The notes beneath the pieces were generated by a model that searched no databases, was not told where the DNA came from, and saw nothing but the letters and a program-made list of their open reading frames with translations. DNA of 64,000 nt from Escherichia phage ECp13, in the sequence record PP274704.1. The stretch is one strand, 5' to 3'. Below, one piece after another: positions 38,873 through 52,035 of the stretch. Position numbers and translations under genes: made by a program. The first letter of the stretch is position 1, and every line of letters begins with the position of its first letter.

Positions 38873-40156
38873 TTATTCATCAATGATAATTTTTGGTAGC
38901 TTAACACCTAATAAAACAGACAAATCTGAACGACCCGCCATTTTATCCATGTCTCCACCATCAATTACTCTTGCTTCTTTTTCATCTTTTGCTACAGTGT
39001 AAGGATTTGCAGATAAAGCATATCTAACTAATAAACCGATAGATGGCTGCAAACTTTCTGGATCAACTACAACTTTAAATGCACCTACATGTTCAGGGTC
39101 ATCTAAGTCAAGACCTTCTGTATACGGAGCATAGAAAATTGACCCAACAATTTCTTTTTCACCGATATTTTCTACTACGCCAACGATTACATAATCTAAT
39201 GGGCTGTTGGTATCGCAATAAAGCGGTAAACCATTAGCTAAGAACCCGTAGGCATTTTGTGAAAGATATTTGTCATCTTCTGGTTTATGTTTTAACCAAC
39301 CTGATGCAGCAAGAATTGCAGCGGCACGAGCTGAAGCAACACAGAATGTTGCAGTATAAGTTGATTCTTTTTGGATATGCGAAACCATTTCACATACCAT
39401 TCGGTATAATGAACGACCAGCTTCAGGTGCAGATGCATAACTCAAATCAATGAATCCAGTATCAGTAATTCCTGTAACTTTATAGCGTTTTGACACTGTA
39501 ATCAAAGACTGCAGAATATCTTTATTGATTTCATCTGCCATTTCGGTTGCAAGCAAATCTTCCAAGAAATTAGGAGCATCGAATCCATTTGCTTCTAAAT
39601 CTTGTGCTAATTCAACTGTGATGCCAGTTTTAAGTTTACGAGATTTAACCGCGGTTTGCCATTTATTAATCTGGAATCTAGCATCCGCAATTTCACTATC
39701 AGAGCTTTCAAATTTGCTTGTTACTGCAGCATCAGAAAATAGACGAACCTTTAAAAGAACAATTGCAATCTGAAGAGCTAATTCTAAATCGCTTTCTTCA
39801 ATATCAGCAAATGGTGTATCTTCTAATACTTTATAAACGATATTATTATATTTGAATAAATCGCCTTTATTGAGAGTTAATTTAGACTCTTCTGTTAATT
39901 CTGTGATTTGTTCTCGGTCTACATACCCAGCTTCGCCGGCGTAAGTAGCACCAGTTTTAAATGTAAATTCGTTATCTGGGTTAAGGTATTTGATACCATA
40001 AAAAGCAGCAACAGGTTGATTAGTTCTTTGCGTTGCTACAATGTCAGAATATATTAATTTAGTGGTAGCGCGAGTCAAAGCAACGAGATTTGGGCGACCG
40101 ATTGAGTTGCTATTCGTTGTGGTTGATTCGCGCAGAAGTTCGTTGATTTTAGCCAT
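38873..40156 (-). CDS. 24: capsid vertex protein
   Basis: 427 aa; paralog of gp23; late promoter upstream. Confidence 0.9.
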   Translation of the reverse strand: MAKINELLRESTTTNSNSIGRPNLVALTRATTKLIYSDIVATQRTNQPVAAFYGIKYLNPDNEFTFKTGATYAGEAGYVDREQITELTEESKLTLNKGDLFKYNNIVYKVLEDTPFADIEESDLELALQIAIVLLKVRLFSDAAVTSKFESSDSEIADARFQINKWQTAVKSRKLKTGITVELAQDLEANGFDAPNFLEDLLATEMADEINKDILQSLITVSKRYKVTGITDTGFIDLSYASAPEAGRSLYRMVCEMVSHIQKESTYTATFCVASARAAAILAASGWLKHKPEDDKYLSQNAYGFLANGLPLYCDTNSPLDYVIVGVVENIGEKEIVGSIFYAPYTEGLDLDDPEHVGAFKVVVDPESLQPSIGLLVRYALSANPYTVAKDEKEARVIDGGDMDKMAGRSDLSVLLGVKLPKIIIDE

Positions 40157-40183
40157 TGCGCTTTCCTTTTGGTTTATATGATT

Positions 40184-40191
40184 TATTTATA
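40184..40191 (-). promoter_or_regulatory. late promoter TATAAATA for gene 24
   Basis: Plus-strand TATTTATA 28 nt upstream of the gene 24 ATG. Confidence 0.6.
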
Positions 40192-40206
40192 CCATAAAAA
40201 CAACTA

Positions 40207-40226
40207 AAGGGACCCGAAGGTCCCTT
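40207..40226 (-). terminator. terminator after gene 23
   Basis: AAGGGACC-CGAA-GGTCCCTT hairpin between the gene 23 stop and the gene 24 late promoter. Confidence 0.65.
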
Positions 40227-40239
40227 AAATCGTCAAAGA

Positions 40240-41805
40240 TTAGATACCTTTAACATATACACGGCGGAAGTAAGCGTTTTTACCAAGGCTATTCAGAATA
40301 GAAGGCATACCGCTCTGGATGCGAGAAGCCGGAGCCTGAGCAGCGGATTCTGCAAATGGGTTGATACCGATACCGTAACGAGTTTTGAATCCCATTACTG
40401 GTTGGAAGTTCTTCGGATCGGAACCACGCAGCGGAGTCAGAGCTACATATGGAGCGTAGTAAATACCAGCATCCATTTCGTTCGGACCTTTATAACCTAC
40501 AGTGAAATAATCCTGTTTAGCATACTGGTCGATATATACACGGTATTTACCACCCAGAACACCAGCAAATACTGACTTAGTAGTATCAGTGTTAAAGCCG
40601 GTAGCCAGACCCTGTGCAGCATAAGAAATGCCAGTATCAACTGAAGCCAGAACGTTAACTACGTTACGGGAAGCGATAATGAAGTTACCTTCACCACGAC
40701 CGGTCTGACGAGCAATTTCAACTGCTTCTTTGTCAATCTGGAACAACAGAGCTTTAAAGGATTCACCCGCCCAGCGAGCACCACGAATATCAATCGGATC
40801 CTGGAAGTCAAACACACCAGCTTTAGAACCCGGAGTCAGGGTCATACCAGATTTACCAACCTGAGCTGAGTAGTTAATCCAATCAACAACTTCACGGTTG
40901 ATTTCCAGCATGATTTCGGTAGCCAGAATACCAGACAGTTCAGCATCAGCATCCATACCGTGAACAGCGCGGAGGTCTTGTGCTAATTCGATAGAGTAAG
41001 CAGCTTTCAGCTGGCGAGATTTAGCTTCGATAACTTGTTTATCGATACGGAAGCCCATTTCATTCCATGGGTTATCGGTAGAACCGTTGAAACCTTCCTG
41101 AAGTTCAGCGATAGAAGTAGCCATACCTTCAGCGATTTCTACCAGTACACCAGCTTCCATTTGTTTCTTAATTTCAGCATCTAATTTAGCTGCATCATCC
41201 GCAGTAGAACTAATTGTTACTTGAGCAGAAGCTTGCAGATACACAGTACCAGTGTCCTGGAAGAAGTGAGTATAGATATCACCTACTGTAGTTTGTGTAC
41301 TAGCAGCCAGAGCTGGGAATTTCTTAGCAGCACCCTGACCAGAGAACATTGCATCTGGACCATACATTGGGTGGAATGCTTCTTTAGCACCGGCAGCGAT
41401 TGGGTCTTTACCATATACTGCACGCAGTGCGAATACCTGGCCAGTCGGGCTGTTCATCGGCTGAACACCGCAAATGTCGAAAGCAATCAGGTTAGGAATA
41501 GCACGACGTACCATACCCATAACAGCTGGGCCAATCTGAGTTACTGCGCCAGAAGTCTGACCTGCAGCGATGTTGGTAGCATTGTAACCGTGGTCACCAC
41601 CGATTTCAGCTTCTGTTAAGAAAGAACCGAATGCCTGAGCAATTTTTTCGTCTTTATATTCCGGAGCTGTCTGGAAATCTTTTTCCTGGTTTTCAAAGAT
41701 TTTAGCGATAATCGCTTGTTTGCTATTAGCAATTTCCGGTAAACCTTCACCTTCCAGTAATGGCTTCCATTTGTTCAAAAGTTCAGCTTTAGTTTTGATA
41801 GTCAT
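40240..41805 (-). CDS. 23: major capsid protein
   Basis: 521 aa; sequence recognised as gp23 (MTIKTKAELLNKWKPLLEGEG...). Confidence 0.97.
   Translation of the reverse strand: MTIKTKAELLNKWKPLLEGEGLPEIANSKQAIIAKIFENQEKDFQTAPEYKDEKIAQAFGSFLTEAEIGGDHGYNATNIAAGQTSGAVTQIGPAVMGMVRRAIPNLIAFDICGVQPMNSPTGQVFALRAVYGKDPIAAGAKEAFHPMYGPDAMFSGQGAAKKFPALAASTQTTVGDIYTHFFQDTGTVYLQASAQVTISSTADDAAKLDAEIKKQMEAGVLVEIAEGMATSIAELQEGFNGSTDNPWNEMGFRIDKQVIEAKSRQLKAAYSIELAQDLRAVHGMDADAELSGILATEIMLEINREVVDWINYSAQVGKSGMTLTPGSKAGVFDFQDPIDIRGARWAGESFKALLFQIDKEAVEIARQTGRGEGNFIIASRNVVNVLASVDTGISYAAQGLATGFNTDTTKSVFAGVLGGKYRVYIDQYAKQDYFTVGYKGPNEMDAGIYYAPYVALTPLRGSDPKNFQPVMGFKTRYGIGINPFAESAAQAPASRIQSGMPSILNSLGKNAYFRRVYVKGI

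Positions 41806-43974: not shown

Positions 43975-43975
<1 letters not shown>
43727..43975 (-). CDS. 67: prohead core protein with an acidic D/E-rich tail
   Basis: 82 aa; poly-Asp/Glu C-terminus. Confidence 0.7.
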
Positions 43976-45600
<1,625 letters not shown>

Positions 45601-46124: not shown

Positions 46125-46138
46125 ATTAGCCTCTGTAG

Positions 46139-46146
46139 TATTTATA
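46139..46146 (-). promoter_or_regulatory. late promoter TATAAATA for gene 19 (proximal)
   Basis: Plus-strand TATTTATA 15 nt upstream of the gene 19 ATG. Confidence 0.55.
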
Positions 46147-46196
46147 TCCCTATGTTTAACCTAGGCATATAGAATTAAAGAATTAAGGATATAGTG

Positions 46197-46204
46197 TATT
46201 TATA
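46197..46204 (-). promoter_or_regulatory. second late promoter motif at the edge of the endonuclease cassette
   Basis: Plus-strand TATTTATA next to the 46206-46225 hairpin. Confidence 0.4.
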
Positions 46205-46205
46205 T

Positions 46206-46225
46206 GGCCTGCCGAAACAGGCCTT
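46206..46225 (-). other. hairpin at the 3' boundary of the endonuclease cassette
   Basis: GGCCTG-CCGAAA-CAGGCC. Confidence 0.4.
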
Positions 46226-46230
46226 TAGAA

Positions 46231-46848
46231 TCATTCTAGTAAATCCCAAAGATCTACACTATTTCTTTTTGATTTTTCTCGGTTAGATTCCCAAGTGATT
46301 ATTTCTAAATTATTAATACCGCCAATTATTTCAGCAGGAATTAAATTATCAAAACCGTATTTGATAGATACCTTATGATCAAGTTGGTAAGCACCTTTTG
46401 TACCGCACACTCCTATTTTATCAGCATTTGGCCATTTTGACCAAATTTTCTTATGCTTACGAGTTTCTTTATATACCAATGAAATATATTCACGCATTTC
46501 AGATTTATTTGGGTTCCATCTTGGATGATTTACGCCATGCATACATTCTACTGTTTTTCCTTTATTCGCGGAACCATATGAATTATTGCGCATTTTATCT
46601 TTATGACGGCAATCACGACAAATATCAGTGTTTCTTCCAATGCGTTGGTTATATTCAATTCCACATTTATCGCAACGGCATTTTACATACGCGGTATTAC
46701 CTTTAATGTCTTCAACTTTAACATCAATTTCATAATACCTAAATCCATGTTTAACCGCTCCAAGAGGTGTTAATTTATAACCCTTTGATTGATAATGTTT
46801 AAAATTTGATGGTACAATTTTCACTTTAACAAACTTAGAAATAATCAC
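46231..46848 (-). CDS. HNH-family endonuclease with an N-terminal Cys cluster; putative free-standing homing endonuclease
   Basis: 205 aa; GTG start with GAGGAAA ribosome-binding site; CRCDKCG...CRDCRH Cys cluster; HNH-like C-terminus (CGTKGAYQLDHKVSIKYG...NNLEIITWESNREK); AT-rich. Confidence 0.6.
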   Translation of the reverse strand: MIISKFVKVKIVPSNFKHYQSKGYKLTPLGAVKHGFRYYEIDVKVEDIKGNTAYVKCRCDKCGIEYNQRIGRNTDICRDCRHKDKMRNNSYGSANKGKTVECMHGVNHPRWNPNKSEMREYISLVYKETRKHKKIWSKWPNADKIGVCGTKGAYQLDHKVSIKYGFDNLIPAEIIGGINNLEIITWESNREKSKRNSVDLWDLLE

Positions 46849-46865
46849 TTGTTTCCTCGAGAATA

Positions 46866-46877
46866 GGGCCGAAGCCC
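46866..46877 (-). other. hairpin after gene 18, at the 5' boundary of the endonuclease cassette
   Basis: GGGC-CGAA-GCCC. Confidence 0.4.
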
Positions 46878-46886
46878 CATAATCAA

Positions 46887-48866
46887 TTAACCTGCAAGAC
46901 CAGTTAACTCATCGAAGTCTGCACCAGTAGCAGTTGCGACGAAATTCAAAGTAATATAATTTATACTGCGCGCCGGTTGGATGTAGAATGTTGCAACAAA
47001 CTCATTTCTATCAATTACTGACGGAGTGTTATTTGTTGTATCGCAAACTACACGATATTCATAAATTCCACCGAGAGCTTTAATTCCCTGCAAGTACTGG
47101 GAAGTTTCTGTGCGGAATGATGAACGAGTAAACGCGTTGTTTAATTCGAACAAACGATATTTTGAACTACGTCCGATATTCGTTTTCAACATATTAAACA
47201 GACGACGAACGTTAATACGATCAAATGGAGAAGGAACAGAAGTAGCTGTTTTATCACCATATAATACGTAACCATCACCACCTGTACCAGTTACTGGGTT
47301 GATAGCTTCTTGATATAAACGGTCGCGCTGAGCTTGGCGAGTTTCAATAGCAAGTTTAATAACGTTCAAAATTTGGCCACGATTATAACCAGCTGGAGAC
47401 ATCCAAGTCTGAGAAATGTTATCTGTTCTTGCGCATAAACCAGCAATATCAGCTGCTAATGGAACCCAACGATTTACATCATTATATTTGTCATACTGAT
47501 ACTTGTAGTTACCATCAATTGCTGCGTAGGTTGAACTGATATTAAAGTTATTATCAGTGTATGAACCTGCTGCGGTTCTCCAGTTGACTAAGTTATCAAC
47601 AGCACGAGTTACAGGAATTCCAACTACAGTTTCACGCGGTGGCGAGCACAGTACTAAGCAATCTTGGCGAGCATCCCCAATTGAAACGACGTGTTTTTGG
47701 ACAGTAGATGCTGTTTCTAAAGATTCACCGGCGCAAGAACCCGCAATAAACAACTGAACATCAACAGATTCGCGGTCAGCAAAGAAGTCCCAAGCTTCCA
47801 TCAAATCTCCTGCTGTTACTTCAGCATTTGACGATAATCCACCAGACAGAGTTAAAATTCCAGAGAAGCCTTCTGGCCAGTTTTGTGCAGTTGCAAAAAT
47901 ATATTCTGAACCGCCTTTTGCGAAAAAGTCATCAATGTAGATGTTACTATCGTAAATATCTTTTTCACCACGTTTTGTTGAAAGAACAACGCTTTGAACA
48001 ATAGCATCATTGCGACGAACTATAATAGCGTATTGTGAATCAGTTTGTGGTCCATATCCAAACACTGCTTTGGCAGTAGATGCACGTGTTCCGCCACCTG
48101 GATAAATCGGCAGTAATGCAGAAGCCCCTTTTGCGTAGTCAGCTTTAGATACAATTTCAATTTCAATTTTATCGCCCAACTCGCCTGGATAAAGAGCTAC
48201 TACTCCTGGAATTCCATATTTTTCGAGATTTGCCTGAAAGTCAACAGCTGTCATAGCAGCTTCGGCATTTTCAATTTCAGCTAATAAAATACCAGAATCA
48301 GTAATAATTTTTCCAAGAGTTATTACTGCAGCTAAACCAGATGAAGACGAAGAAATTTCCGCGGTCCAGTTAGAACCTAATTCTGGATATTCGCCTACTT
48401 CTTTCGCTTTAGCGATAATTTTTGCGGTAGGAATATTAATTTTCTTAATTTTTCCATCAGCATCTACTTCGGTAACTTTACATTCTGTTTCAACATCTTC
48501 TGAAACATACTTAACCGTGATTTTATCTCCAACCGCGTAGTTACTACCTGGTGTAGAAATAGTGTATTCAATATTACCGGCAATCGGAGATGAGTTTTTA
48601 GCGGTATCTCTATCGACAGCACGCACAACTCGCAAATCATTTCCGTATTGTAAGAAATTCATTGCAGACATAAAATAGTCAGCAGTTTCAGCTGTAGGTT
48701 GACCAAAAGTATTAACTAAATCTACTTCATTTGTAACCTGTTTAATTTGAAAAGCAGGACCCCACTGGAATTTACCGGCCAAAGCTGCTGTACCAGTAGA
48801 GTTATTAACCACGGTGCTTTGAACCGTAGTTTCTTTGAGCTCAATGCCCGGAGATAATAAAGTCAT
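46887..48866 (-). CDS. 18: tail sheath protein
   Basis: 659 aa; synteny and size. Confidence 0.95.
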   Translation of the reverse strand: MTLLSPGIELKETTVQSTVVNNSTGTAALAGKFQWGPAFQIKQVTNEVDLVNTFGQPTAETADYFMSAMNFLQYGNDLRVVRAVDRDTAKNSSPIAGNIEYTISTPGSNYAVGDKITVKYVSEDVETECKVTEVDADGKIKKINIPTAKIIAKAKEVGEYPELGSNWTAEISSSSSGLAAVITLGKIITDSGILLAEIENAEAAMTAVDFQANLEKYGIPGVVALYPGELGDKIEIEIVSKADYAKGASALLPIYPGGGTRASTAKAVFGYGPQTDSQYAIIVRRNDAIVQSVVLSTKRGEKDIYDSNIYIDDFFAKGGSEYIFATAQNWPEGFSGILTLSGGLSSNAEVTAGDLMEAWDFFADRESVDVQLFIAGSCAGESLETASTVQKHVVSIGDARQDCLVLCSPPRETVVGIPVTRAVDNLVNWRTAAGSYTDNNFNISSTYAAIDGNYKYQYDKYNDVNRWVPLAADIAGLCARTDNISQTWMSPAGYNRGQILNVIKLAIETRQAQRDRLYQEAINPVTGTGGDGYVLYGDKTATSVPSPFDRINVRRLFNMLKTNIGRSSKYRLFELNNAFTRSSFRTETSQYLQGIKALGGIYEYRVVCDTTNNTPSVIDRNEFVATFYIQPARSINYITLNFVATATGADFDELTGLAG

Positions 48867-48894: not shown

Positions 48895-52035
<3,141 letters not shown>

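Follow-up and report, generated by a model that had tools for sequence, protein, structure and literature searches.

A cassette behind the tail sheath gene of Escherichia phage ECp13 encodes a putative free-standing homing endonuclease from a new family of HNH-like proteins

T-even phages are a model system for free-standing homing endonucleases, and the free-standing endonuclease genes of T4 are known as promoter-less cassettes that harness upstream promoters and carry hairpins at the ribosome-binding site (RBS) (PMC2988022). HNH enzymes of the T4 MobA-E and I-HmuI type come close to the 205-aa open reading frame (ORF) described here, which lies between the tail sheath gene (gp18) and the tail tube gene (gp19) of Escherichia phage ECp13: both are free-standing promoter-less cassettes between conserved T-even genes that use an upstream promoter (PMC2988022), and both combine a nuclease part with a specificity part and have a DH...N...N/H type core. 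The 205-aa family differs from the Mob enzymes in its reversed domain order with the nuclease at the C-terminus, its zinc-ribbon specificity module (both domains predicted) and the lack of the HNH zinc-knuckle cysteines. MobE matches PF01844 and NUMOD3, whereas the family matches no Pfam HNH or NUMOD model, and hhalign of the family profile (A2) against T4 MobE gave a probability of only 0.6%; the family is thus not Mob.

Other described systems share single traits with the ORF. F-CphI of the T4-like cyanophage S-PM2, a DHHRN-family enzyme with an Endo VII motif, is likewise a free-standing endonuclease of a T4-type phage, and its C-terminal catalytic domain also escaped the classical family models (PMC6083498). 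Membership in the DHHRN family (PMC6083498), whose name stands for an Endo VII motif of Asp, two His, Arg and Asn, was rejected since the ORF reads D157-H158-K-V-S without a second His and has no Endonuclease_7 Pfam match. The Hef-like F-LimVIII of LIMEstone1 is a free-standing endonuclease in the same interval, between the tail tube and sheath genes (PMC3296691). Membership in the Hef/EDxHD group, considered for this match, was rejected as well, since Hef/EDxHD endonucleases (I-Bth0305I) are Vsr-like (PMC3239194) and no such similarity is seen in the 205-aa family. The family is also missing from the catalogue of T4 endonucleases (Table 1 of PMC2988022), because T4 lacks the gene, and a literature search found no paper on it.

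One more endonuclease cassette in a T-even phage is not surprising. What is novel here is an undescribed HNH-like family that joins a C-terminal nuclease to an N-terminal zinc ribbon (both predicted), its constant position after the sheath gene, in Straboviridae as well as beyond them, and a predicted specificity domain that is modular and comes in two forms. On balance we think it probable that the cassette product is a putative free-standing homing endonuclease of this new family, which is carried by such classical phages as T6 and RB3. If active, the enzyme would add an HNH-like endonuclease family with reversed domain order and would create a site of marker exclusion or gene conversion within the tail-gene block, relevant to T-even crosses and to the engineering of therapeutic T4-like phages. 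Natural allele pairs that share the nuclease half but not the specificity module would then offer a ready test of how homing specificity evolves, and the functional assignment would extend to 6120 metagenome relatives found by profile search.

An optional insertion with exact borders

The window, i.e. the whole stretch of 64,000 nt of ECp13 DNA (PP274704.1) that was analysed, carries at this place the late morphogenesis genes of a Tequatrovirus on the minus strand, in the order gp17, gp18, 205-aa ORF, gp19 and gp20 (Table 1). The neighbouring genes were identified from the annotated records of PBM-1, pSs-1, RB3 and ADUt, which are 98-99% identical. A sequence-only reading of this DNA had proposed an AT-rich HNH endonuclease cassette, bracketed by hairpins, in an interval where it expected no gene in T4. 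The minus-strand ORF is indeed present between gp18 and gp19, and T4 has no gene there. The cassette is AT-rich, though only modestly so, with a GC content of 32.8% compared to 39.6% for gp18, 40.4% for gp19 and 36.1% for the whole window.

Table 1. Features of the gp17-gp20 region of the window (positions in the window)
Feature	Position	Strand	Basis
Large terminase gp17	48898-50730	-	ORF list
Tail sheath gp18, 659 aa	46887-48866	-	ORF list; 99% identity to annotated sheath genes of RB3, ADUt, T6
gp18 stop codon TAA, left border of the insertion	46887-46889	-	Junction alignment
Optional 656-bp cassette (hairpin, RBS, ORF)	46231-46886	-	Alignment with PP01, T4, SA20RB; junctions in 19 loci
Cassette RNA hairpin, 7-bp stem, UUCG loop, just upstream of the RBS	46863-46880	-	Fold prediction
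Shine-Dalgarno GAGGA, 6 nt before GTG	46854-46858	-	Sequence
GTG start of the 205-aa ORF	46846-46848	-	ORF list
205-aa ORF, PHROG 5104 member (N-terminal zinc-ribbon module and C-terminal HNH-like domain, both predicted)	46231-46848	-	
Dimorphic central module, about residues 9-133, type A in ECp13	46450-46826	-	DNA alignment
Cys cluster C57-x-C59-x2-C62...C77-x2-C80, predicted zinc ribbon / treble-clef finger	46609-46680	-	
Predicted HNH-like beta-beta-alpha core	46273-46413	-	Motif
Core residues D157-H158; N180; N189; K192	46375-46380; 46309-46311; 46282-46284; 46273-46275	-	
Native hairpin GGCCUGUUUCGGCAGGCC, next to gp18 in phages lacking the insert; outside the insert	46206-46223	-	Same in T4, SA20RB, PP01; annotated as terminator in SA20RB
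Two native T4 late promoters TATAAATA serving gp19	46197-46204; 46139-46146	-	Pattern search; one annotated as late promoter in SA20RB
Tail tube gp19, 163 aa	45633-46124	-	ORF list and annotated relatives
Portal gp20	43975-45561	-	ORF list

The window was aligned first to PP01, T4 and SA20RB and then to 19 Tequatrovirus loci. The cassette, which consists of a UUCG-loop hairpin followed by the RBS and the ORF up to its stop codon, replaces the 9-bp TACGGTGCA of the T4/T2-type empty site. Between the gp18 stop codon and TTCTAAAGGCCTG, occupied Tequatrovirus genomes have 645-657 bp, and the empty ones (T4, T2, SA20RB, Sf23 and five IMG/VR contigs) only TACGGTGCA. These junctions are identical across the 10 occupied and 9 empty loci. 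The interval holds a precise optional insertion with a patchy distribution, and the comparison of T-even genomes bears out the insertion proposed earlier: rather than being a core gene of all T4-type phages, the ORF is absent from T4, T2 and close relatives in two other sampled lineages. The gene is optional, and its location is unusually constant.

The two bracketing hairpins both exist, but only the upstream one is borne by the cassette. The downstream hairpin (GGCCUG-UUUC-GGCAGGCC; -14.1 kcal/mol and z -3.1 for the 51-nt stretch around it) is native, and so are the two TATAAATA late promoters; insert-free T4, T2 and SA20RB have them too.

Elsewhere in the window, the 23/24 interval measures 83 nt (40157-40239) between a 521-aa ORF (40240-41805, gp23-sized) and a 427-aa ORF (38873-40156, gp24-sized). 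T4 has the GIY-YIG gene segD in this interval (Table 1 of PMC2988022); judged from the 83-nt gap, ECp13 appears to be without it.

Transcription and translation signals

A pattern search of the interval found no late promoter between the gp18 stop codon and the start of the ORF; transcription of the ORF must therefore be read-through of the gp18 message. The nearest upstream late promoter (48895-48902) lies ahead of gp18, and the cassette would be transcribed late from there, on the tail of the abundant gp18 message. The GTG start and its RBS are in place as the sequence-only reading described them, the RBS lying six nucleotides before the start, and the GTG is common to both Tequatrovirus alleles (types A and B, see below), S16, Roth21, POP12 and the metagenome locus L047. 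A longer 216-aa product with an upstream start, annotated in ADUt and in the homologue P0001, was rejected, as it rests on a 1-nt difference in hairpin length and the homologues all begin with MIISK at the GTG.

The hairpin of the cassette (AUGGGGC-UUCG-GCCCUAU) lies in a 61-nt stretch that folds at -16.6 kcal/mol (z -2.1), and a weak outer stem (46883-46886 paired with 46857-46860) takes in the first two RBS bases. Across the family, 14 copies have a spacer of 35 nt or more, and 13 of them show a stable hairpin between the sheath stop codon and the RBS, the sequences being unrelated; an Rfam search of the interval returned nothing credible. In the free-standing endonuclease gene seg43(25) of Aeromonas phage 25, too, a stable hairpin stands just before the RBS without fully sequestering it (PMC2988022). 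Unlike the ORF described here, seg43(25) is a GIY-YIG enzyme at another locus, and for both hairpins a regulatory role is putative. The hairpin ahead of the RBS together with the GTG start may keep expression of the ORF low. The 227-aa and 223-aa variants of CBH8 and Bp7 are arranged in another way: a TATAAATA late-promoter motif ends 5-6 nt before the ATG, which leaves no room for an RBS and suggests a near-leaderless late transcript in place of hairpin and GTG.

A predicted zinc ribbon and an HNH-like end

The ORF matches PHROG 5104 over its full length (residues 1-204, E 3.8e-91), a family whose listed function is "unknown function". dN/dS values of 0.04-0.33 within and between lineages place the family under purifying selection. 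Because of the PHROG match, hundreds of homologues and these dN/dS values, the ORF is a real gene and not a chance reading frame. Full-length ORFs were found in all 10 extracted Tequatrovirus copies and in 8 of 9 from other lineages (AS-zj matches the C-terminal half only), and 232 of 239 tblastn matches span at least 80% of the query. A word-indexed search gave 37 homologue clusters, none of them with a Pfam domain, and the exhaustive HMMER profile search of metagenomes yielded its 6120 representatives at E<=1e-3.

Both motifs named by the sequence-only reading, the N-terminal cysteine cluster (C57/C59/C62...C77/C80) and the HNH-like C-terminal string QLDHKVSIKYG...NNLEIITWESNREK, are found in the protein. 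Its placement among HNH proteins was not matched by profiles: in the Pfam scan no curated HNH model (PF01844, HNH_2-5 and similar) was hit by the window protein at E<=1, and 35 family members gave a single HNH_4 match (E 0.078). The window protein and its relatives matched no nuclease family in NCBIfam and no defence or anti-defence model in PADLOC. DUF4379, a treble-clef zinc finger, was matched weakly by 10 of the 35 members, and the N-terminal half gave weak PDB matches to the ribbons of mS66, bL31 and AccD. Beyond such weak zinc-ribbon matches, PDB sequence searches (single sequence, A2, C-domain A3 and broad A4) found nothing, and neither did Foldseek against the PDB.

Invariant in 35 homologues are C59, C62, C77, G105, W111, Y121, N141, G149, Q155, D157, H158, S161, Y164, G165, N180, L181, W186, N189 and K192. 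Among 56 more distant sequences N180 is still invariant, and D157, H158, L181, N189 and K192 are at least 90% conserved. The window protein and the family thus present the HNH-type residue pattern (DH, N, N, x2-K), with 22 residues from H158 to N180 and 9 from N180 to N189, a spacing that is canonical by the Pfam HNH consensus. Likewise, D-H...(22)...N-L-x3-T-x2-S-N-x2-K aligns with the classical HNH pattern DH...NL..LC..CN..K. The second cysteine pair of that pattern is replaced by T/S, so that the zinc-knuckle cysteines are absent, and this is plausibly why the family escapes the cysteine-weighted Pfam HNH profiles.

In confident AlphaFold models (pLDDT 85.9 for the full length; pLDDT 84.8 and pTM 0.74 for the C-domain), one strand ends in D157-H158, the next one begins at N180, and the helix after it contains N189. 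From motif and fold together, D157-H158 would act as general base, N180 would be structural and N189 would be a metal ligand; the zinc-ribbon module may confer DNA specificity. We regard the window protein as a predicted zinc-ribbon protein with an HNH-like nuclease end, belonging to a so far uncharacterised family. In distant relatives the same C-terminal domain is paired with other N-termini, e.g. DUF7487 repeats: the homologues P0169 and P0125 join the DH...N...N domain to long series of "RYGVxxPMQSxExKEK" repeats (Pfam DUF7487), which resemble a DNA-binding region of the repeat type that takes the place of the zinc ribbon.

Could the protein have lost catalysis and act merely as a nucleic-acid-binding protein, e.g. 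one that regulates the mRNA or DNA of late tail genes, by means of its zinc ribbon and a degenerate HNH scaffold? The missing nuclease profile match and the loss of the zinc-knuckle cysteines would fit, as would the position of the gene between two hairpin-flanked late messages. However, conservation across thousands of relatives falls precisely on residues of catalytic type (D157, H158, N180, N189, K192) and not on a surface patch, and many active enzymes of the HNH superfamily do without the cysteines; we consider this reading improbable.

The best structural matches of both the full and the C-domain model are Gme HNH (4h9d) and GVE2 HNH (5h0o), i.e. small phage or bacterial HNH nicking endonucleases of the HK97 gp74 class. 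Further matches include Cas9 HNH domains, DUF1524 of SspE and BrxU, an Rhs toxin, T5 SciA, Vibrio endonuclease I, Cap5, TagI, VcaM4I and DraIII. The two top matches are stand-alone, terminase-associated enzymes, and the ORF is only one gene away from the large terminase gene. Both points would suit an HNH packaging factor associated with the terminase, like HK97 gp74, Gme HNH and GVE2 HNH, a role to which we nevertheless give very little credence.

A fixed address, a patchy distribution and two N-terminal forms

The interval is matched by 690 phage records, of which about 520 with at least 90% identity form our Tequatrovirus set. Type A, the allele of RB3 and ECp13, is present in 47 of these ~520 records (including RB3, pSs-1, HY03 and HP3) and type B, the T6 type, in 70 (including T6, PP01 and Kelasse). 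Occupancy is thus about 22%, while about 78% of the records, among them T4 and T2, are empty without a scar. Most public records label the ORF "hypothetical protein"; a few pipelines name it homing endonuclease, type II restriction endonuclease, holin or putative head morphogenesis protein. In RB5, RB6, RB7, RB9 and RB10 the ORF is unannotated, and in S16 only the 3' half is annotated, the GTG start having been missed. T-even DNA 98-99% identical to the interval is also present in MG010123.1 (Staphylococcus phage SAJK-IND, 32 kb), OR584013.1 (Pseudomonas phage PsgM02F) and MW749000.1 (Hafnia phage IsaacDaniel), and the host labels look doubtful for at least the first two.

Tblastn located the family in 239 phage records at 240 places, so essentially one copy per genome. 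We inspected 15 contexts outside Tequatrovirus, comprising eight annotated phages (S16, Roth21, POP12, Mokit, CBH8, Bp7, phiM12 and AS-zj), one IMG/VR contig (L022) and six metagenome lineages (L041/L042, L043/L044, L045, L046/L047, L048 and L049, the last three being loci of A/B partners). In all 15 the sheath gene is followed directly by the homologue; five contexts are short contigs with a cut upstream ORF, where the sheath was called by tblastn to the gp18 C-terminus alone, over as few as 40 residues (L049). The association of the family is with the sheath gene, since in phiM12 the gene after the homologue is not gp19. Close relatives with an empty site were found in two other sampled lineages (L018/L019 compared to S16, and L021/L023 compared to Bp7 and L022), and in the S16 lineage the insertion is likewise bounded by the stop codons of the sheath gene and of the ORF.

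The two alleles differ in a single module. Types A and B share the hairpin and the first 22 nt and last ~220 nt of the ORF, and differ in the central ~375 nt, where T6/PP01-type phages and two other lineages confirmed by DNA carry an unrelated-looking type B module in place of type A. This pattern was confirmed at the DNA level in three separate lineages. In the pairs L046/L047 and L048/L049, whose lineages have 70-78% DNA identity to the window and to each other, the partners match at 87-97% until about 60-75 nt into the ORF, show no similarity over the central ~365 nt, and match again from the last ~220 nt on through gp19 (and gp20 in the longer pair). For five A/B pairs, identity is 26-35% in the N region and 87-95% in the C-terminal domain; proteins of the same type from different lineages have 49-63% and 69-75%, respectively. 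The nuclease half therefore follows the phage lineage, and two old versions of the zinc ribbon coexist within lineages. A third N-terminal variant of 227 aa occurs in CBH8/CHI14-type phages.

Such a polymorphism of A, B and empty sites across lineages is unusual for a homing element. It is conceivable, if rather unlikely, that the locus has three states kept across genus-level lineages by frequency-dependent competition, with A and B modules that recognise different targets; each form would then possibly target the allele of the other in addition to the empty site. If true, this would be a long-lived modular homing-endonuclease polymorphism tied to the sheath gene, unlike the usual cycle of invasion, decay and loss.

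The same data bear on a different history, in which the gene is a resident accessory that benefits the phage, for instance a late nuclease directed against co-infecting phages or the DNA of hosts or parasites, or a factor shaped by an arms race. It would have been inherited vertically since early T4-type evolution and often lost, with its two N-terminal types under balancing selection. The strict adjacency to the sheath gene in the 15 contexts, the strong purifying selection with hardly any decayed copies, the A/B dimorphism that spans lineages and the tight packing of some copies in the operon speak for this history. So does the co-divergence of the C-domain with the flanking gp18 and gp19 genes (correlation of identities, rho about 0.51, p about 0.035, n=17), which is equally expected if transfers require homologous flanks and so stay within lineages. 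However, the gene is dispensable, as the many scarless empty records attest, it has no embedded promoter, no neighbouring gene relies on the cassette, and known defence and anti-defence models are unmatched. Moreover, a benefit to the phage leaves unexplained why most phages lack the gene and why its seat must be behind gp18; site-specific homing accounts for that seat. We regard the accessory nuclease as the main rival reading, possible but unlikely.

Is there evidence for horizontal spread? In 19 loci, a small sample, the distribution of the cassette is sporadic and does not track the relatedness of the flanks. The flanks of the empty SA20RB are closer to the window than those of the occupied RB3, HY03 and HP3, and the divergence of the type-A ORF (0.3-1.1%) is lower than that of the adjoining 500-700 nt (1-3%) in five of six comparisons; both may be weaker signs of horizontal spread. 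An IMG/VR search with gp19 gave only 15 loci, too few for a population analysis. A co-conversion tract, seen as lower downstream divergence in occupied genomes, was rejected, as the signal was driven by one empty contig (L015, IMG/VR contig 3300030021_000023). Its gp20 shows ~20% DNA divergence from the window beside a 97%-identical gp19, i.e. a sharp mosaic boundary at the 19/20 junction.

The interpretation given by the sequence-only reading is partly supported. The precise insertion, the patchy distribution and the HNH-type motif agree with it; no HNH profile is matched, and the family is not Mob. In the homing scheme, a mobile promoter-less cassette would have inserted exactly after the stop codon of the tail sheath gene. 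Its product would be a two-module site-specific nuclease, made up of an N-terminal zinc ribbon and a C-terminal HNH-like beta-beta-alpha-metal nuclease without the zinc-binding cysteines. In mixed infections a relative without the insert would be nicked or cut by the enzyme at its 18-19 junction or at a site nearby, and recombinational repair off the cassette-bearing genome would copy the cassette in. Comparison of 10 occupied with 9 empty Tequatrovirus genomes revealed no fixed nucleotide difference within 2.9 kb on each side. If the region is targeted, a site split by the insertion therefore accounts better for the immunity of the phage's own genome than a fixed protective polymorphism in these flanks would.

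One junction further downstream, an ORF of ~190 aa lies between gp19 and gp20 in L046 (1619-2191), L047 (1908-2480) and the Bp7 locus L010 (3769-4350), with no counterpart in the window. Its weak Pfam matches to NUMOD3 (E 0.006) and SegE GIY-YIG (E 0.005) make a further free-standing endonuclease probable. The Bp7 record splits the annotation of gp20 in two.
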